Assembly: GCA_964016885.1 (NCBI GenBank)
Contig: OZ024740.1
Span: forward strand, 358,236,001-358,300,000
DNA length: 64,000 nt
Direction: 5' to 3'
From: Eledone cirrhosa
Taxonomy: Eukaryota
Under the pieces are notes generated by a model. It had not been told where the DNA came from, searched no databases, and saw only the letters and a list, made by a program, of their open reading frames with translations. Position numbers and translations under genes: made by a program. Shown here one piece after another: positions 16,431-63,210 of this stretch. Numbering within the stretch: position 1 is the stretch's first letter; each line of letters begins with the position of its first letter.

Positions 16431-16483
<53 letters not shown>

Positions 16484-16706
16484 TTCGTTTCTGAATTTGT
16501 TTAGCAAGATTCTTTATCTGAAATCGTGTGTTGAAACCGATATTGTTATACTTTGGGAGGGTCATGTTGCCAATAAGAAACACACGCACCAGTTGCTTTC
16601 ACTTCAATTTAATTTATTATATATTTATAAATTTACAAATTTATAAATTTATAAATTTCTGGTTGGTTGGTTGGTTCCACAACCAGATAGTTGTTTATAT
16701 ATATAT

Positions 16707-16751
16707 AGTCATAGTTCTTTCGTCACACACTCTGTGACCTCTTCAGTGACT
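16707..16751 (-). ncRNA. Minimal type I hammerhead ribozyme (inverted pLTR copy)
   Basis: Reverse complement of 20422-20466. Confidence 0.85.
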
Positions 16752-17064
16752 GGGGATTTCTTTCTTCGTTTCTGTGCCTTTCCTTTCTTCTATCCTACGC
16801 CATTTTGTTTGTGTGTGGGTTGCGTGCTCAGTTTGCGCATGCGCCACATCCGGGTGTCTGTGTGTGTTTGTGTTCATTTTTCTATTTTTCTATTTTTCTA
16901 TTTATATTTGTTTGTTTATTTATTTATTTATTGTTGGTTGGTTGTTTGTTCTATGTGTGTGTGTGTTTTCATTTTTTCATTTTGTCTTGTGTGTGTTTTC
17001 ATTTTGTGTGTGTTTTCAATTGTAAGTTGTTTGTTCTATGTGTGTGTGTGTTTTCATTTTGTCC

Positions 17065-19475
17065 TTAATTGTAAGTTGTGATGTTGCTGTTCCACTCATA
17101 TTTTCTATTTAATTTTGGTTTTAATTCTTTTATGCTTACTGCCTCTGTAATTTGCCTAAACATTGCGTCTTTCTTGTGTGTGGATTCTATTTTTATTTCT
17201 ATGCTCTCTAATTTACCCCTGTGTTCTATCTTAGCATGTTGGTAGAGCACAGATGATTCTTTACTATCTTGGAGGTCTCGCCAGTGTTCATTTATTCGTT
17301 CCCCTATACTACGAGCTGTCTCACCTATGTACACTATATTTTTGTTTCTACATTGTCCTTCAGTACATCTTATGCTATATACTACATTTCTAGTTTTACA
17401 GTTAATATGGGGGCTTATTTTACAGGTTATACATTTCTTATCTATACATGAGGGTCTTTGGAACGGGTATGTCTTGCTAATAAGTGTTTTTACGGAGGTA
17501 CCAGGTCTTTCTACTATCTTAATATTGAGATTATGTTTCTTTAGGGCCCTTCTAAATTTGTAGGCTAGTTCGCCTCTAGGGGTTGTATTGATGAACATTA
17601 CACTCTGGTATTTATTGCTATCATACCATGAGTTTATTCTATTGGCCTTGTTCTTAGTTCTTTCTATTCTATTCCAAAATTTGCTCCTATACAAGGGGCA
17701 GGTCCCATTTATGTCATTATTTACCATTTTTTCCCATTTGGTTCTGGCTCCTTTATACACTCTGATTCTATCTCTCTGATTGTAGCCAGAGAACTGCATA
17801 CGGTGGATGAAGTGTTGTATGTGTCTCTCTAGTTCTTCGGGGTTGCACATGCGGGACACATTTCTCATCACCCGTACCAAATCCGCAATCAGTATGTTGA
17901 TTTTGGTATGGTCCGAAATGGCCGAGTTTCGGTGGATCAGATGTTTGGAAGTCATGGGTTTGGCATAATGGGAATGGAGGATTTGTTTTTGGTTGTTAAT
18001 AGTATCTAACCAGAGCTCTGTGTCTAGTACAGGTAATCGATGGTTGGGGTGTCTACTTGGGTAGTCTATAGTAACTCTAATGCTCTGGTGGATGGAGTTT
18101 GCTATTTGCTGGATGCTTTCCATTGTGTTTTTCTCTGGTTCCTGACTGTTCTTTAGTGGGGGTGTCTTAACTACGATGTTTATATCATCTACGTAGCGGG
18201 AGTACATTATCAGGGTTAAGCTGTCTTCTAATTGTTCATTAAGTTTTTGTTTAAGTCTACTGTCCCACCATACCATGAATAAGTTAGCTATGTCGCCTGC
18301 AATGCTAACACCAATGGCTGCTCCTTCCTCTTGGGCATATGTTTTACCATTAAATTTGAACATATGTTCCTTAAGGGTTAATTTTATGCTGGCCCCTACC
18401 GCATGTGCAATCATTTTCTTCAGTTCATCGTGGTTTTCGGGTGTCCGTATGGCTCTGGTCCACCCATTCCATCTATCTGTGTGGGTTTTCTTGGGCATTG
18501 AGGTAATGGTAGGTGGTCTGCCTCTTGCTGGTCTTGTAGGGCACAGGTTGCTAAGGTCGTAAGTGTCTAGGTAACTATTGCTATGGGTAAGCTTAAGTAG
18601 AAGTCCCAGCTCACTGGTATCAATCCCACGGAACTCAACCTTGCTCTCGCTGATCATTTCGACGCATTTCTCCACAGCAAAATCCACGTCAATAGATGGA
18701 TACAGGGACACAACATCCATACTGCCTATTATGCAGTTTGTTAGGTCCCCAGATCGGTTGCCCGCGCCGATTCTGCTGAGGAGGTCCTCGGTGCTGTCAC
18801 ACACATCTGGGGACATCTCAATGATGGGGCGTATGATCAGGGAGAGGAAGTAGGACAGTCTGTAGTTACTAGCAATGTTAGCCCCACAGACTGGCCGTGT
18901 TGGTGGTCCCGCGACAGGGTCCCAGCCCGTTTTATGGTCTTTTCGAAGCCCATACAACGCCGGCACGTCATTGTTCCAGGCCTGGAAGTTGTTGGCAGTC
19001 CTTTTGTTGGGCTGCATTATATTTGTCCACATCACCATATGGGCATTGAGGGTTTTTTCTCTATCCTCATGCTCCTGTGGTGTTACCTCTCTTGTGTTAG
19101 TGATGTGGGGTTGCATTGCCTGGATGTAGTTTGGCAGGCTGTCAACCGACATTCTGCCAGACTTGTCTGTTGGAAAGCATGCTATCTCTCCATTACGCGA
19201 GCGCTGCATGAGCTTACGCAAGCCATTTGCAGATTCTTCTCCCAGTTGCTGGGCCTCTATTCTATTATGCTTCTTGCTATACTGTTCTATAATATTTCTA
19301 AGTTCGGATTTAGCTATACTAAATTGTGCTTCTGTTTGTTCATCGACCTGCGACGGCAACTGCGTGCGTTTGTTAAATGGCAAAGTCGTGGCGTGGACTC
19401 GTCGTAGGTCGAATGATTTATCGGAGGGGTTATAAAACGGAGAGTTCCAGGCTGCTGCTTTATGTGTACTAGTGC
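17065..19475 (-). pseudogene. 5'-truncated inverted copy of the PLE ORF; RT and GIY-YIG remain open
   Basis: 772-aa ORF identical to the C-terminal part of 20608-24483 except LPVLD vs LHVLD. Confidence 0.9.
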
Positions 19476-20108
19476 CCCTTGTACAGGAGCAAATTTTGGA
19501 ATAGAATAGAAAGAACTAAGAACAAGGCCAATAGAATAAACTCATGGTATGATAGCAATAAATACCAGAGTGTAATGTTCATCAATACAACCCCTAGAGG
19601 CGAACTAGCCTACAAATTTAGAAGGGCCCTAAAGAAACATAATCTCAATATTAAGATAGTAGAAAGACCTGGTACCTCCGTAAAAACACTTATTAGCAAG
19701 ACATACCCGTTCCAAAGACCCTCATGTATAGATAAGAAATGTATAACCTGTAAAATAAGCCCCCATATTAACTGTAAAACTAGAAATGTAGTATATAGCA
19801 TAAGATGTACTGAAGGACAATGTAGAAACAAAAATATAGTGTACATAGGTGAGACAGCTCGTAGTATAGGGGAACGAATAAATGAACACTGGCGAGACCT
19901 CCAAGATAGTAAAGAATCATCTGTGCTCTACCAACATGCTAAGATAGAACACAGGGGTAAATTAGAGAGCATAGAAATAAAAATAGAATCCACACACAAG
20001 AAAGACGCAATGTTTAGGCAAATTACAGAGGCAGTAAGCATAAAAGAATTAAAACCAAAATTAAATAGAAAATATGAGTGGAACAGCAACATCACAACTT
20101 ACAATTAA
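19473..20108 (+). pseudogene. GIY-YIG-coding segment in the upstream partial direct repeat
   Basis: Translation matches the last ~209 aa of the full ORF; begins at the inversion junction, so it has no true start. Confidence 0.9.
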
Positions 20109-20421
20109 GGACAAAATGAAAACACACACACACATAGAACAAACAACTTACAATTGAAAACACACACAAAATGAAAACACACACAAGACAAAATGAAAAA
20201 ATGAAAACACACACACACATAGAACAAACAACCAACCAACAATAAATAAATAAATAAACAAACAAATATAAATAGAAAAATAGAAAAATAGAAAAATGAA
20301 CACAAACACACACAGACACCCGGATGTGGCGCATACGCAAACTGAGCACGCAACCCACACACAAACAAAATGGCGTAGGATAGAAGAAAGGAAAGGCACA
20401 GAAACGAAGAAAGAAATCCCC

Positions 20422-20466
20422 AGTCACTGAAGAGGTCACAGAGTGTGTGACGAAAGAACTATGACT
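20422..20466 (+). ncRNA. Minimal type I hammerhead ribozyme in the 5' pLTR
   Basis: agtca CUGAAGA ggtcaca gagtg tgtgac GAAA gaac UA tgact; predicted cleavage after A20461. Confidence 0.88.
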
Positions 20467-20607
20467 ATATATATATAAACAACTATCTGGTTGTGGAACC
20501 AACCAACCAACCAGAAATTTATAAATTTATAAATTTGTAAATTTATAAATATATAATAAATTAAATTGAAGTGAAAGCAACTGGTGCGTGTGTTTCTTAT
20601 TGGCAAC

Positions 20608-23600
20608 ATGACCCTCCCAAAGTATAACAATATCGGTTTCAACACACGATTTCAGATAAAGAATCTTGCTAAACAAATTCAGAAACGAAATATCGTAAGC
20701 CTTAGCCAGGCTAACAAGATACTGAAAACCACCATGTTCTGTTGTCTACGAAAAACCATAACATCTCGACAACTACACTTCATAAAACTGTGCACCACTT
20801 CTAGAATCTACACCAACACCATCAATACCGACGTTAGAAGATTACAACTCACCAAAAAACAAGCAGATAGGCTAAAACGAACTTTAATTCTAAACATAAA
20901 AAAGAAGATCTATAGAGAATTAAGTCATCAAGAAAAACTAAAGCGTAACCTAATAGATGAAATATCTAAAATCACCACACCAGCAGAAAAACTAACATTT
21001 ATAAGCCTTATACGCCCCGAAGAACAGTACATTACTCAAGAATGTAATAAGCACTTTAACAGAAAATTAAAGTGGCTTAAACAGGCAAAGCTAAATCGGG
21101 ATACTATAGAGTATACCAATAGATATCCCGACAAAATTGACGGTATCAACATGGCCGACACCTCATTATCTGAAGAGTTCAACAATGAAAATACCAACAT
21201 TTATGGAAACACGGAAATAGATAATAATGAAATGTCTGTGTTACGTCTGCCACCCAAATTTGCGACATTCAAGAAGGTAAATATGATTAGTTGTCTGTCA
21301 GAAATAGAAAAATCATTTACGAAACTACGCTGGAGCATCAAAAACAAAAACAAAAGCAACAATATACGCACACACATATACAACACACATCCCAACAACA
21401 ACAGACACACAGACACAAACAACAATAACAACAACAATAGCAACATACCCAGATACAACAACAACAATAGCAACATACCCAGATACAACAACAACAATAG
21501 CAACATACCCAGATACAACAACAACAATAGCAACATACCCAGATACAACAGACACGCAGACACAAACAACAATAACAACACACACGGAGACAACAATAAC
21601 AACAACACACACATCAACAACAACAACAATAGCAACATACCCAGATACAACAACAACAGACACGCAAACACAAACAACAATAACACACACAACAACGATA
21701 ACACACACACACACGGAGACAACAACAACACACATCAACAACAACACACATCAACAACAACACACACGCATTCAATGCCTCTCACCACCACCACAATCTT
21801 AACAAACACACAGACACAGAAAACAAGTAATGACAGTAGCACAGAAATCAGAGAAATAAGAGAAAGTAATAGGATTAAAAGGAAAAGGAGATGGGAGACT
21901 AAGGACAAAGAGAATAACCAAGACGAACACACAGACACACAAAATAGGGTAGATAACAACATTGAGCCAGTGGAAAGAGACAGGAGTAATTATGAGAGAC
22001 ATAGAAATAACCATGAAGCTGAGGCTGCTGCTGTTGGTGGAAATAGAAACAACACAACTAACAATAACAATAGCACTAGTACACATAAAGCAGCAGCCTG
22101 GAACTCTCCGTTTTATAACCCCTCCGATAAATCATTCGACCTACGACGAGTCCACGCCACGACTTTGCCATTTAACAAACGCACGCAGTTGCCGTCGCAG
22201 GTCGATGAACAAACAGAAGCACAATTTAGTATAGCTAAATCCGAACTTAGAAATATTATAGAACAGTATAGCAAGAAGCATAATAGAATAGAGGCCCAGC
22301 AACTGGGAGAAGAATCTGCAAATGGCTTGCGTAAGCTCATGCAGCGCTCGCGTAATGGAGAGATAGCATGCTTTCCAACAGACAAGTCTGGCAGAATGTC
22401 GGTTGACAGCCTGCCAAACTACATCCAGGCAATGCAACCCCACATCACTAACACAAGAGAGGTAACACCACAGGAGCATGAGGATAGAGAAAAAACCCTC
22501 AATGCCCATATGGTGATGTGGACAAATATAATGCAGCCCAACAAAAGGACTGCCAACAACTTCCAGGCCTGGAACAATGACGTACCGGCGTTGTATGGGC
22601 TTCGAAAAGACCATAAAACGGGCTGGGACCCTGTCGCGGGACCACCAACACGGCCAGTCTGTGGGGCTAACATTGCTAGTAACTACAGACTGTCCTACTT
22701 CCTCTCCCTGATCATACGCCCCATCATTGAGATGTCTCCAGATGTGTGTGACAGCACCGAGGACCTCCTCAGCAGAATCGGCGCGGGTAACCGATCTGGG
22801 GACCTAACAAACTGCATAATAGGCAGTATGGATGTTGTGTCCCTGTATCCATCTATTGACGTGGATTTTGCTGTGGAGAAATGCGTCGAAATGATCAGCG
22901 AGAGCAAGGTTGAGTTCCGTGGGATTGATACCAGTGAGCTGGGACTTCTACTTAAGCTTACCCATAGCAATAGTTACCTAGACACTTACGACCTTAGCAA
23001 CCTGTGCCCTACAAGACCAGCAAGAGGCAGACCACCTACCATTACCTCAATGCCCAAGAAAACCCACACAGATAGATGGAATGGGTGGACCAGAGCCATA
23101 CGGACACCCGAAAACCACGATGAACTGAAGAAAATGATTGCACATGCGGTAGGGGCCAGCATAAAATTAACCCTTAAGGAACATATGTTCAAATTTAATG
23201 GTAAAACATATGCCCAAGAGGAAGGAGCAGCCATTGGTGTTAGCATTGCAGGCGACATAGCTAACTTATTCATGGTATGGTGGGACAGTAGACTTAAACA
23301 AAAACTTAATGAACAATTAGAAGACAGCTTAACCCTGATAATGTACTCCCGCTACGTAGATGATATAAACATCGTAGTTAAGACACCCCCACTAAAGAAC
23401 AGTCAGGAACCAGAGAAAAACACAATGGAAAGCATCCAGCAAATAGCAAACTCCATCCACCAGAGCATTAGAGTTACTATAGACTACCCAAGTAGACACC
23501 CCAACCATCGATTACATGTACTAGACACAGAGCTCTGGTTAGATACTATTAACAACCAAAAACAAATCCTCCATTCCCATTATGCCAAACCCATGACTTC

Positions 23601-24483
23601 CAAACATCTGATCCACCGAAACTCGGCCATTTCGGACCATACCAAAATCAACATACTGATTGCGGATTTGGTACGGGTGATGAGAAATGTGTCCCGCATG
23701 TGCAACCCCGAAGAACTAGAGAGACACATACAACACTTCATCCACCGTATGCAGTTCTCTGGCTACAATCAGAGAGATAGAATCAGAGTGTATAAAGGAG
23801 CCAGAACCAAATGGGAAAAAATGGTAAATAATGACATAAATGGGACCTGCCCCTTGTATAGGAGCAAATTTTGGAATAGAATAGAAAGAACTAAGAACAA
23901 GGCCAATAGAATAAACTCATGGTATGATAGCAATAAATACCAGAGTGTAATGTTCATCAATACAACCCCTAGAGGCGAACTAGCCTACAAATTTAGAAGG
24001 GCCCTAAAGAAACATAATCTCAATATTAAGATAGTAGAAAGACCTGGTACCTCCGTAAAAACACTTATTAGCAAGACATACCCGTTCCAAAGACCCTCAT
24101 GTATAGATAAGAAATGTATAACCTGTAAAATAAGCCCCCATATTAACTGTAAAACTAGAAATGTAGTATATAGCATAAGATGTACTGAAGGACAATGTAG
24201 AAACAAAAATATAGTGTACATAGGTGAGACAGCTCGTAGTATAGGGGAACGAATAAATGAACACTGGCGAGACCTCCAAGATAGTAAAGAATCATCTGTG
24301 CTCTACCAACATGCTAAGATAGAACACAGGGGTAAATTAGAGAGCATAGAAATAAAAATAGAATCCACACACAAGAAAGACGCAATGTTTAGGCAAATTA
24401 CAGAGGCAGTAAGCATAAAAGAATTAAAACCAAAATTAAATAGAAAATATGAGTGGAACAGCAACATCACAACTTACAATTAA
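20608..24483 (+). CDS. Penelope-like polyprotein: N-terminal domain, Asn-rich insert, reverse transcriptase, Cys-rich linker, GIY-YIG endonuclease (1291 aa from first ATG)
   Basis: Motifs TDKSG, LYGLRKDHK, TRPVC, SMDVVSLYPSID, QEEGAAIG, SRYVDD, SGY; linker CIDKKCITCKISPHINC; NVVYSIRC...YIGETARSIGERINEH; EAVSI...LN. Confidence 0.97.
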   Translation: MTLPKYNNIGFNTRFQIKNLAKQIQKRNIVSLSQANKILKTTMFCCLRKTITSRQLHFIKLCTTSRIYTNTINTDVRRLQLTKKQADRLKRTLILNIKKKIYRELSHQEKLKRNLIDEISKITTPAEKLTFISLIRPEEQYITQECNKHFNRKLKWLKQAKLNRDTIEYTNRYPDKIDGINMADTSLSEEFNNENTNIYGNTEIDNNEMSVLRLPPKFATFKKVNMISCLSEIEKSFTKLRWSIKNKNKSNNIRTHIYNTHPNNNRHTDTNNNNNNNSNIPRYNNNNSNIPRYNNNNSNIPRYNNNNSNIPRYNRHADTNNNNNTHGDNNNNNTHINNNNNSNIPRYNNNRHANTNNNNTHNNDNTHTHGDNNNTHQQQHTSTTTHTHSMPLTTTTILTNTQTQKTSNDSSTEIREIRESNRIKRKRRWETKDKENNQDEHTDTQNRVDNNIEPVERDRSNYERHRNNHEAEAAAVGGNRNNTTNNNNSTSTHKAAAWNSPFYNPSDKSFDLRRVHATTLPFNKRTQLPSQVDEQTEAQFSIAKSELRNIIEQYSKKHNRIEAQQLGEESANGLRKLMQRSRNGEIACFPTDKSGRMSVDSLPNYIQAMQPHITNTREVTPQEHEDREKTLNAHMVMWTNIMQPNKRTANNFQAWNNDVPALYGLRKDHKTGWDPVAGPPTRPVCGANIASNYRLSYFLSLIIRPIIEMSPDVCDSTEDLLSRIGAGNRSGDLTNCIIGSMDVVSLYPSIDVDFAVEKCVEMISESKVEFRGIDTSELGLLLKLTHSNSYLDTYDLSNLCPTRPARGRPPTITSMPKKTHTDRWNGWTRAIRTPENHDELKKMIAHAVGASIKLTLKEHMFKFNGKTYAQEEGAAIGVSIAGDIANLFMVWWDSRLKQKLNEQLEDSLTLIMYSRYVDDINIVVKTPPLKNSQEPEKNTMESIQQIANSIHQSIRVTIDYPSRHPNHRLHVLDTELWLDTINNQKQILHSHYAKPMTSKHLIHRNSAISDHTKINILIADLVRVMRNVSRMCNPEELERHIQHFIHRMQFSGYNQRDRIRVYKGARTKWEKMVNNDINGTCPLYRSKFWNRIERTKNKANRINSWYDSNKYQSVMFINTTPRGELAYKFRRALKKHNLNIKIVERPGTSVKTLISKTYPFQRPSCIDKKCITCKISPHINCKTRNVVYSIRCTEGQCRNKNIVYIGETARSIGERINEHWRDLQDSKESSVLYQHAKIEHRGKLESIEIKIESTHKKDAMFRQITEAVSIKELKPKLNRKYEWNSNITTYN
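21340..21800 (+). repeat. In-frame AAC/AC-rich low-complexity region with 30-bp tandem repeat (NNNNSNIPRY)
   Basis: aacaacaatagcaacatacccagatacaac x4 at ~21431-21550, plus a fifth copy near 21622-21651. Confidence 0.95.
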
Positions 24484-24796
24484 GGACAAAATGAAAACAC
24501 ACACACACATAGAACAAACAACTTACAATTGAAAACACACACAAAATGAAAACACACACAAGACAAAATGAAAAAATGAAAACACACACACACATAGAAC
24601 AAACAACCAACCAACAATAAATAAATAAATAAACAAACAAATATAAATAGAAAAATAGAAAAATAGAAAAATGAACACAAACACACACAGACACCCGGAT
24701 GTGGCGCATGCGCAAACTGAGCACGCAACCCACACACAAACAAAATGGCGTAGGATAGAAGAAAGGTAAGGCACAGAAACGAAGAAAGAAATCCCC

Positions 24797-24841
24797 AGTC
24801 ACTGAAGAGGTCACAGAGTGTGTGACGAAAGAACTATGACT
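24797..24841 (+). ncRNA. Minimal type I hammerhead ribozyme in the 3' pLTR
   Basis: Identical to 20422-20466, 4375 bp downstream. Confidence 0.88.
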
Positions 24842-25000
24842 ATATATATATAAACAACTATCTGGTTGTGGAACCAACCAACCAACCAGAAATTTATAAA
24901 TTCATAAATTTGTAAATTTATAAATATATAATAAATTAAATTAAAGTGAAAGCAACTGGTGCGTGTGTTTCTTATTGGCAACATGACCCTCCCAAAGTAT

Positions 25001-25036
<36 letters not shown>

Positions 25037-25687: not shown

Positions 25688-26829
25688 GACTACACCTAAG
25701 TGGACTACCTATAACAATAATCAGTTATCCCGTATATATATATATATATATACCTACACGTGCATCATTATGTACTACTGGGTACCCGTGGTTAATCCTT
25801 AGGTAGTCCACAGCGAACATGTATTCAGTTTAATCAGTTTTATAGTAAAACTATAGGAGGCGAATTGAACATTGGATAGAATGCTTTATGATATTCGTTC
25901 CGGGTCTCTGCTCTCTGAGTCCAAATCCCACCGAGGTCAAATTTGCTTTTCATCCTTTCGAGGTCAATAAAAAAAGAACCAATCTAGTACCAATCGATTC
26001 TTCCTCTATATCTCTTTCTCATTTCCTCTCTGTACTCAGATCCTGGAGAGGATCCATCCATACATACATACATAGTAAAACTGCAGTGCCTGTGTGCCGA
26101 ATATATATATTTTAGTAAATTGAAATGAAAAGTGTTTGGAAATGCGTCAAAAATTTAGGCTAAACTATGAAAGAAATCATACAAGGCACATAATTCTCAT
26201 TCAAAGAAGCATGATATTTCATCGATTGCAAGCCTCGATTTGGTGAATCAGCAACTGAAGTGCTCCAGAATCAACTGCCAAAGCCTGGCTTCGCATAACT
26301 ATTTTTCAATCTGGATGAAGTCGTTGCGGAAATGAAATCACAATTTGATAATAACCAAGATATATTTTGTGCACTCGGCTATATTATCCTCAATATTGAT
26401 GTATCAGATGATTCAGATGACTACTGTCAACTTGGTATTGATTTGGATCTCTTAAAGGTGGAAAAAAAATCTTCACAAAGTTTATGACGGACTGTATACA
26501 TCTATCGGGTTCGCAAACAACTGCTACCGATGTTGTTAAAACTGTTTACAAGAACGGTCATCATATTGTACTGCCAGTCAGAACAAAATCACCGATATCT
26601 TTGTCACCATTCGTGCTCCATCGGGTTTTGTAGTACACTCCATCACCAGTTCGGGATTAATGAAGCTATATATGAGGAGTACAATGTGTTAAACACACCT
26701 AAACGGTATAACAATACTAAATATTGAGGGAAAGAATGCCAACATGTCTATTGACAAAAATGGTGATAAAATAATTAATACTTCAGCTGTTAAGAAAGCC
26801 AGAAAACAGTATTTATTTTAAATAATGTC

Positions 26830-27040
26830 TAGAGCTGTGGGTTGGTCGTGTCGGTAGGGCGTCAGACAATATGCTTTGCGGCATAGTGTTACGGACGTTT
26901 ACGTTCTGAGTTCAAATCCCATCGAGGTTAGCTTTGTCTTTCATCCTTACGGGGTCGATAAAATAAAGTACCAGTAATGTACTGGGGGGTGATTTAGTCA
27001 ACTTTCCCTTTCTCATCAAATCGTTGGCGGTACTTAAATT
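26830..27040 (+). mobile_element. SINE family 1 copy
   Basis: gttctgagttcaaatccc B box plus tttcatccttacggggtcgataaaataaagtaccag core. Confidence 0.85.
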
Positions 27041-39472: not shown

Positions 39473-40364
39473 TTATGTGACGATTACGTGGGGATTATTT
39501 GTTGTTTGAACGATCACTATTTCATCTTCTTTAATATCTTCTGATGCTTCTTGCAATACAAGCCAGCATTCTCGATGTCCGTTGACACTTGCGTAGTCTT
39601 CAGCCGTAAAATTTCGTAGTTTGTCACGATTTTTAACATCAGCATTTCGACTTAGAAGAAATCTGACAACTTCTACATGTCCATATTTAGCTGCGGTAAT
39701 CAGAGGTGTTGAGCCATCATATTGGTCACGTGCATTAGGATTTACATGTCCCTTGCCACATAACAATTCGACAAAATCTAATTGACCATTCTGACATGAC
39801 TGCATCAAAGCGTGATGTCCCCAAGAGCCAGCTTTTTTATCACGAAGGTAAACACTCAAGAGATATTCTGCTACATGGTCCTGCGAGTTGTCCCATGCCA
39901 ACATTAACGGAGTGATGTTATTTGCATCATGAACATCAACATTAGCTCCGTAATGAATTAACAGTTTCACACTTGTTAAGTAACCGCATGCCGCAGCAAA
40001 ATGCAAAGCTGTTCTTTTAGCTGGAATAGAAGCATTGCCTTTGGCTGTTCGATTGATATCGGACCCGAATTCTAAAAGCAATTCGAGAATCTCTGGATTT
40101 TTACAAGCTAAAATTATAGGTGTATTATCTGGTGTTGTTCCTATATCGGGGGAAGCACCACCTATTAAATGCTTCATTACGCATGCGTGGTGACACTTTT
40201 CAATGGCAGACAACAGTCCCTGGTCTTCACACGAGTCTGCACATGGTCGTATGGTTTGTCTAAGTCGAGGACCAGTAAGGACACGTTTAGATGATGGTCG
40301 ACGAAGAACTGAAGAAATTCGATTCGCTGTTCGACTTGTATTGATAGTCAGCCTCCTTTTCAAG
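39473..40364 (-). CDS. Ankyrin-repeat protein, terminal coding exon
   Basis: Ankyrin motifs TPIILAC, TALHFAAACGYLTSVKLLIHYGANVD, TPLMLA, GSTPLITAAKYGHVEVVRFLLSRNADV; no ATG start; acceptor ttttttttattttcag|c at 40365/40364. Confidence 0.92.
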
Positions 40365-40921
40365 CTGAAAATAAAAAAAAATGTAATAATATATTATGTC
40401 CACTATATGACCATGTTGGTAGGTTCAGATGGTTAACATTAATATTTTGGCAACAAACGTAGTTTTCCCCTTAAGCCGACTAATTGAATGCATAAAAATG
40501 ATAGAAACTATTACCAGGAATATTGTACAAGTAAATCTCCTAACAAGATCCTCGGTTATATCAGAGAGTCAGATATAAATCATAACACAGAGTAGCATAA
40601 TTTATCTCCGTAAGCAGCGGTAGCTACAGCAACAGCAACGTTGTAAAATTGAGGAGCATTTCGTTATATTTTAGTGGTGAATTATATGCTTATTATGAGA
40701 GAGGAATCTCATTTTCAGAAGATAGTTTGTGTACTAGACAAAGATTCACCTCCTTACACATAATAGCATAAGATATAACAGGTTTTTTTTTTTACAGTTT
40801 AATCATACGAGAAATGGCAGTGTATTCGCAGGAGTCCCATGACATGGGCGGAAACCACGACTTTTGGCAGTAGTGAATATAAGGCAATACATCAAGATAT
40901 AATTGTTTCTCTATTTTCTAT

Positions 40922-43174: not shown

Positions 43175-47034
<3,860 letters not shown>

Positions 47035-49909: not shown

Positions 49910-50073
49910 ATGAATGGCGCACAAAGGGTTAATGTTTATTGGCAAGAAGTTTTTTGAATAATAAAAGACGGGTTAAAGCGACCTACAATGTATTTGTGTA
50001 TATATATATAAATATATATTCAAAAAACTTCTTGCCAATAAACATTAACCCTTTGTGCGCCATTCATCTAACT
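49904..50073. repeat. 57-bp perfect inverted repeat abutting (TA)n
   Basis: agttagatgaatggcgcacaaagggttaatgtttattggcaagaagttttttgaata and its reverse complement at 50017-50073. Confidence 0.92.
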
Positions 50074-63102: not shown

Positions 63103-63210
63103 AAGAAGATTTTAGCAGATGCAAGCATATCTATGCTTATGTTTGTACATATATACATATATAAGTACAAACATAGGCATAGATATGCTTGCATCTGCTA
63201 AAATCTTCTT
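63103..63210. repeat. ~45-bp-arm hairpin with TA-rich loop
   Basis: aagaagattttagcagatgcaagcatatctatgcttatgtttgtac / gtacaaacataggcatagatatgcttgcatctgctaaaatcttctt. Confidence 0.92.

Follow-up and report, generated by a model that had tools for sequence, protein, structure and literature searches.

Endonuclease-bearing (EN+) Penelope-like elements (PLEs) of the Neptune and Nematis types (PMC8557442 and PMC3846280) encode a reverse transcriptase (RT) and, at the C terminus, a GIY-YIG endonuclease, joined by a cysteine linker, in one open reading frame (ORF). They occur as partial tandems with an adjoining inverted 5′-truncated copy and a one-sided tail of 30–40 nucleotides (nt), carry a hammerhead in the repeated part (the pseudo-long terminal repeat, pseudo-LTR), insert into microsatellites and, in rotifers, contain Asn-rich coding inserts. 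The same features, with a tail of 60 nt instead, recur in an element at 16480–25008 of a 64,000-nt stretch of the Eledone cirrhosa genome (assembly GCA_964016885.1, contig OZ024740.1, positions 358,236,001 to 358,300,000, forward strand; hereafter the window). The element itself is ordinary, but it belongs to a family with thousands of very young copies, which permits a comparison pass by pass. The new point is that in this young family the pseudo-LTR is likely rebuilt from a single unit at about every transposition cycle.

In the Poseidon element of Anolis carolinensis, studied in vitro (PMC11167929), two internal RT starts within the ORF start define the tail, both strands of an AT-rich target are cut and extended, and the hammerhead is crossed intact, all of which resembles the present family. 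Poseidon differs in that the cut lies inside the ORF, whereas here it lies 146 nt upstream, and in that its authors propose a linear multi-copy mRNA, whereas the copies here argue for re-reading of one unit. Metazoan PLE hammerheads are minimal (PMC4209133; review PMC6765202), with a short stem I, an extra base before stem II and nearly no stem III, as in the window. Cleavage, ligation and reverse transcription of more than a unit, that is, a circle, were proposed in words in 2014 (PMC4209133), the accessible text containing no genomic or RNA test; loop III is not palindromic here. The bracketing of PLEs by hammerheads, the overhang or tail, and the circle proposal are thus already known. Metazoan non-LTR retrozymes (PMC7229834, bioRxiv 10.64898/2026.07.22.740005) share type I hammerheads and tandem copies; circular RNA has been shown for them, and PLE enzymes have been proposed as their movers. 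They are non-coding, 170–400 nt long and equipped with canonical ribozymes, whereas the unit here is 4.4 kb long and autonomous, with a minimal ribozyme, and its circle is only proposed. No pass-by-pass homogeneity test for an autonomous PLE turned up in the literature searched, subscription papers and supplements lying outside it.

Layout of the element

The features of the window element are as follows, with unit coordinates (u) running from u1 = 20462 to u4375 = 24836.

About 16463–16479: (TA)n target run, left end
16480–19475, minus strand: inverted 5′-truncated arm, u1612–4375 then u1–232; 99.76% identity to 22073–25008 and 99.84% to 19473–20693
16480–16539, minus strand: 60-nt tail, u173–232, at the inverted-arm end only, between two putative RT start sites
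16707–16751, minus strand: third minimal hammerhead, predicted cut after 16712
19473–19475: head-to-head arm junction, 3-nt overlap
19473–20633, plus strand: 5′ direct repeat (pseudo-LTR; partial second pass, u3387–4375 and u1–172)
20422–20466, plus strand: minimal type I hammerhead, predicted cut after A20461
20462–24836, plus strand: cut-to-cut unit, 4375 nt
20462–20607, plus strand: leader, 146 nt
20608–24483, plus strand: ORF, open, 1291 amino acids; N-terminal region, Asn/Thr/His-rich repeat block, RT, Cys linker, GIY-YIG endonuclease
21340–21780, plus strand: Asn-rich coding repeat block
23125–23388, plus strand: RT core, Pfam RVT_1, E = 2.6e-4 (score under the curated cut-off), YVDD motif
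23848–25008, plus strand: 3′ direct repeat, extending 172 nt beyond the cut at its outer end
24163–24438, plus strand: GIY-YIG endonuclease, Pfam PF01541, 25.2 bits against a cut-off of 22.6
24484–24836, plus strand: 3′ untranslated region (UTR), 353 nt
24797–24841, plus strand: minimal type I hammerhead, predicted cut after A24836
25009–25035: (TA)n target run, right end

The initial annotation had described two hammerheads around the ORF, a 4375-nt unit, a 146-nt leader and a 3′ UTR, and these coordinates were confirmed; in other long copies the unit measures 4250–4460 nt. The insertion ends, which it had placed 170–230 nt beyond the hammerhead site, lie at exactly 172 nt in the plus arm (25008) and 232 nt in the minus arm (16480, counted from the cut of the third hammerhead). 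The plus arm (19473–25008) consists of u3387–4375, u1–4375 and u1–172, and its direct repeat (19473–20633 versus 23848–25008) is 1161 nt long and ungapped. The copies within the window differ at 5/1161 sites between the 5′ and 3′ repeats, at 2/1221 between the 5′ repeat and the inverted arm, and at 7/2936 in the third comparison. Both plus-strand hammerheads occupy the same spot of this direct repeat, so the exact bracketing of the ORF is automatic; anything within this ungapped repeat recurs at 4375 nt.

Homogeneity of the passes within insertions

We compared the passes of 65 long insertions, 59 of them with repeated passes, which had been selected either for their similarity to the window or through a word close to the beginning of the ORF. 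Loci L238, L090, L251–253 and L256, the duplicate L261 and unrelated neighbours were left out, simple-repeat tracts and ends were masked, and all comparisons were made on assembled sequence. Different passes of an insertion differed at 103 of 143,324 sites (0.072%; 76/94,738 for the next pass in the same arm and 27/48,586 for another pass in the opposite arm). The same pass in opposite arms differed at 54 of 62,693 sites (0.086%; p = 0.30 versus different passes, the pairs not being independent), and the divergence between insertions was 0.67%. The repeat zone alone gave 0.090% and 0.047% for different passes versus 0.074% for the same pass in opposite arms. At three-way sites, the odd copy was the next pass in 9, the opposite arm in 13 and the same arm in 10, an even pattern, as symmetry predicts.

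Excluding the divergent locus C2a, the variants present in every pass of an insertion comprised 46 of lineage type (202 cases) and 21 that were private, the latter spread over 16 insertions; those within u1–232 were concordant as well. Discordant calls numbered 87, of which 75 were private. The alleles of the other 12 were shared, in unrelated haplotypes or at CpG, except for one sister case (u763), where one of the two insertions was discordant and its sister uniform. Across 143 pairs of related insertions, none of 186 discordant sites was shared, and 53 haplotypes were found among 63 near-full passes. In a fast-changing, microsatellite-rich block of the 3′ UTR, inner and outer copies differed by 1.43 events per kb and outer copies by 1.34, as against 14.3 between insertions. 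The Asn block, whose length varies strongly between insertions (33 length classes in 67 loci), was identical in 9 of 11 same-arm comparisons versus 29 of 2211 between insertions. A nearest-neighbour rate test, in which the compared stretches were unequal, gave 19 own, 16 ties and 26 other.

Simple tandem copying would make the 5′ and 3′ repeats two lineages, so that new variants should appear in one of them only, sister insertions should share mismatches, and the divergence should near that between insertions. Because the passes match within insertions and differ between them, no discordant site is shared by related insertions, and arms reach up to 2.83 units, we conclude that the repeats are likely remade from one unit at each cycle; re-reading of one unit is, in our judgement, highly probable. 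As the template, the initial annotation had offered a circularised monomer or an uncleaved tandem RNA. Plain copying of the latter is disfavoured, since the repeats are homogenised insertion by insertion, and re-reading of one unit is favoured instead, with the circle itself evenly poised. The two alternatives were also incomplete, as a homology-guided jump on linear RNA is a third route.

Crossing of the cut site and ends of the arms

A cleaved linear monomer had been said to be unable to template the insertion ends in one pass, and the family bears this out. Among 69 arms reaching the predicted cut, 67 continue through it and 2 end within 10 nt of it. On the second crossing, 47 of 71 passes go beyond the cut and again 2 end within 10 nt (the sample being 71 of the first 74 listed, with three known crossers omitted). 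These few ends near the cut match the local stop rate, and the second-crossing 5′ ends are scattered out to more than 2 kb, with no pile-up at the cut. An apparent pile-up of 19 5′ ends at −183 proved to be an alignment break in a repeat and was gone after chaining. The second-crossing stop rate is about 2 per kb in u116–u1 versus about 0.8 further upstream; it is raised there on the first crossing too and therefore looks sequence-dependent. Among 100 junctions listed with a gap of 0–10 nt allowed, 90 were canonical, one had a substitution of the cut base and nine belonged to another family; none of the 91 family junctions listed had an indel, in a pattern that demands exact flanks. The cut linear monomer is not the template.

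The leader word has 13,920 exact occurrences in the genome, in several subfamilies. We examined 83 of the first 84 listed matches as unselected arms: 39 ended at u232, 34 at u172 and 9 within 9 nt of either, and one was an inner pass. Thus 82 of 83 arms terminate no more than 9 nt from u172 or u232, 73 of them exactly there. In 40 of 42 two-ended long insertions, one end was at u172 and the other at u232, and the longer arm carried either end type equally often (21:21); the longest arm measured 2.83 units. Because nearly all arms end there and nearly all insertions carry one of each, the 172- and 232-nt overhangs are fixed start points, not chance lengths. By analogy with the anole element, which has two internal starts that define its tail and extends both strands, we infer that u172 and u232 are RT start sites inside the ORF start. 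Folding of the RT-start region was no better than that of shuffles (z = 0.06). Formation of the inverted arm by fold-back of the complementary DNA (cDNA) was rejected, being impossible in 17 of the 42 insertions, the window included. Counts of pattern words could not serve as a survival curve, since the u560 word is subfamily-specific (124 copies versus 356 at u233). Three loci (L244, L284 and L288) have a leader altered in an AT-rich palindrome, 16 nt shorter in all three copies of L244, which forms a small lineage marker.

The hammerhead motif

The motif comprises stem I AGUCA/UGACU, the core CUGAAGA, one extra G, a 5-base-pair (bp) stem II, GAAA, GAAC and UA, and the predicted cut lies 3′ of a CUA triplet, at A20461 and A24836, 4375 nt apart. 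Three identical hammerheads are present in the window, one at each u4375|u1 crossing. They show the features of the minimal type I form, namely the core boxes, stems I and II, an extra base before stem II and an NUH triplet, with a stem III of at most 2 bp and a 2-nt loop. A strict descriptor matched three times in the window and never in 200 shuffles, and the 46-nt motif has 3819 exact occurrences in the genome (control, 0). Among subfamilies, the ribozyme core is spared: the changes are located at the cut base (A or U), at N7, in the loops and in the outer pair of stem I. Cleavage at these sites is predicted from the sequence; an Rfam scan of the window found no hammerhead at E ≤ 1 among 116 matches, nearly all of them simple-repeat hairpins, and the stability of the hammerhead fold was not above that of shuffles (z from −0.8 to −1.3). 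A different family with unrelated flanks (L271–L279; G000:C1, 36–83 Mb) has the hammerhead core and stem II in common with this one.

Proposed mechanism and alternatives

We propose the following cycle. A multi-unit copy would be transcribed through both hammerheads, and the two minimal ribozymes, probably as a dimer or with the aid of the element's protein, would cut the transcript, whose ends would be ligated into a circle of 4.3–4.4 kb. The endonuclease would nick both strands of the (TA)n run, where the footprint is seen in the copies and the chemistry is taken from the anole element in vitro, and each nicked 3′ end may prime RT at one of the two fixed internal sites within the ORF start. 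Both cDNAs would then run backwards through the intact junction, again as the footprint indicates, stop at random about once per kb and sometimes beyond two laps, and have their 5′ ends joined by microhomology. The pseudo-LTR would be the beginning of the second lap, renewed at each transposition. A ligated circle would cover the seamless crossings, the lack of a wall, the laps and the kept ribozyme core with a single assumption, and a covalent circle closed at the hammerhead is the likeliest template, although we would give it an even chance and no better. With the same even balance, this may be an animal retrotransposon that is autonomous and transposes by way of a protein-coding RNA circle of 4.4 kb. 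The circle would be both cut out and closed at the element's own hammerhead, the two strands of a single break would each start copying in laps, and the pseudo-LTR would then record the number of laps instead of being inherited as a repeat.

Several observations weigh against re-reading of a hammerhead-closed circle. Being picked by likeness to the window, the long insertions represent the youngest subfamily, and very young parents would likewise leave little discordance; moreover, a seamless junction is unable to reveal the position of any seam. A palindromic loop III suited to dimer pairing is absent, the AGAACU self-duplex (+1.4 kcal/mol) pairing at two positions on either side of a mismatched centre, and minimal hammerheads cleave poorly (PMC4209133). 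For the anole element in vitro, the accessible text of PMC11167929 reports that hammerhead mutants insert normally, that uncut RNA is the main substrate and that no RNA-seq reads start at the cut. Partial tandems of the same kind arise in Naiads, which lack a canonical hammerhead (PMC8557442).

Two loci belong to the same side of the balance. The largest insertion seen (G000:C4:116262000-116283000, L231–L233; 2.0 + 2.8 units) has, in one arm, a private duplication of 18 nt together with a substitution in both pass 1 and pass 2; neither pass 3 nor the opposite arm contains the duplication. The pattern suggests duplication of a unit in DNA or a template switch; one template per arm was rejected for this locus on account of pass 3. 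At L238 (G000:C1:2083700-2090100), a private A-to-G tract of about 170 nt spans the hammerhead in two of three junction copies, one of them the outer junction in one arm and the second the inner junction in the opposite arm, and nowhere else in the genome. It includes 18 A-to-G calls in u4282–4364 and runs on over the cut, the cut base included. The outer junction of the long arm is unedited and of another subfamily, with the subfamily change near u3300. Adenosine editing is strong in cephalopods, and we infer that the tract resembles adenosine editing of the template RNA, so that L238 is a possible fossil of RNA editing and template switching. The arrangement could stem from a single linear RNA with two junctions, from a template switch from one RNA to another or from subsequent conversion; as a barcode proving that one molecule was read twice, the tract was rejected, being ambiguous and confined to a single locus. 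Numerous A-to-G changes also mark a separate short arm (L251/L252, G000:C2:177130500-177131000), where they affect the leader, the hammerhead and the 3′ UTR. L260 and L261 (G000:C3:173.63 and 173.82 Mb), and also L090, show the same insertion with the same inner junction twice nearby, that is, a local segmental duplication.

Remaking from one unit rules against plain copying of tandem parents and leaves two mechanisms, the circle and a homology jump. In the latter, a linear uncut RNA with repeated ends would be copied to its 5′ end, from which homology would guide a jump to the 3′ repeat, either of that RNA or of its dimer partner, in the style of LTR elements, and one unit would be re-read with neither circle nor cleavage. 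Equal homogeneity and seamless junctions are expected of it, and it agrees with the dispensable cleavage in vitro, the hammerhead-less Naiads, the change of subfamily within one arm of L238 and the raised second-crossing stop rate in u116–u1. However, neither crossing shows a wall at a fixed position, the stop rate is raised on the first crossing too, the variants of u1–232 are also concordant, and a jump gives no reason to keep the ribozyme core. Strand transfer usually requires RNase H, and a Pfam search of the protein found no RNase H domain. We regard this route as possible but rather unlikely. We give still less credence to plain read-through of tandem parents, with uniformity arising from DNA events (unequal exchange, gene conversion) or from insertion of an element beside its own copy. 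In its favour, the insertion at C4:116.27 Mb has the look of a DNA-level duplication of one unit, pairs of neighbouring inverted copies diverge a little less (0.056%) than other pairs, L238 is compatible with one linear RNA, and tandem insertion is the older published view (PMC2377424). Yet read-through would require a fresh uniform multimer parent for most of the 53 haplotypes; it predicts discordance shared by sisters, seen at 0/186 sites, and an excess of the next pass as the odd copy, seen at 9/32. The second-pass lengths are scattered with no upper wall, and if tandem insertions were independent, the haplotypes mixed in them would differ by 0.67% and not by the 0.07% seen.

Two further explanations concern how units could be linked or made alike. 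If linear monomers cut by the hammerhead were linked in the course of synthesis through blunt jumps from end to end, the unit boundary would fall at the cut, and re-reading would homogenise the passes. Such jumps would be required, however, for every arm longer than 172 or 232 nt, and with nearly all arms passing the cut and no junction indels we consider this explanation very improbable. That assembly or polishing made the repeats alike seems scarcely credible: one 130-kb contig (C1526) with four near-identical units and two 172 ends is of the kind expected, but the shared variants are private to each locus and do not follow the family majority, individual passes retain differences of their own, and the ends stay exact from one chromosome to another.

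Classification and other features of the window

On its sequence features, the element is an ordinary EN+ PLE, probably of the Neptune type. One ORF encodes an RT and, C-terminally, a GIY-YIG endonuclease, the pseudo-LTR has an adjoining inverted truncated copy and contains a hammerhead, and the tail is one-ended. A Zn-finger-like Cys motif, a Neptune/Nematis feature (PMC8557442), links RT and endonuclease as C-x4-C-x2-C followed by C and is kept in 7 of 7 aligned proteins. The RT motifs YVDD and DKS are present in the alignment, although the RVT_1 match is weak, and the nearest named protein is a hypothetical RT of Octopus vulgaris (68%). Pfam gave no significant match with the entire ORF, the domains surfacing only with its C-terminal parts, and a sequence search of the ORF against PDB gave a single weak match, to an intron endonuclease (E = 0.17). 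Membership in the Naiad/Chlamys clade, with an N-terminal endonuclease and no canonical hammerhead, was rejected because the endonuclease here is C-terminal, as was membership among the non-LTR retrozymes, with their short non-coding tandem unit, because the unit here is 4.4 kb long and coding. A substitution private to the plus arm at window position 23516 affects a proline that the inverted arm and every aligned relative retain.

Elsewhere in the window, an older related Penelope stub lies at 180–400 on the minus strand; it is 83% identical to the leader and the beginning of the ORF, its hammerhead is decayed, and it ends near the u232 position. A short interspersed repeat is present in two copies, diverged to 76%, at 25897–25975 and 26888–26966, and a stop-free frame of 306 codons lies at 39473–40393 on the minus strand. 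Near-perfect hairpins at 43243–43356, 49915–50062 and 63103–63210, with microRNA-model scores under the cut-offs, are probably inverted repeats resembling miniature inverted-repeat transposable elements.

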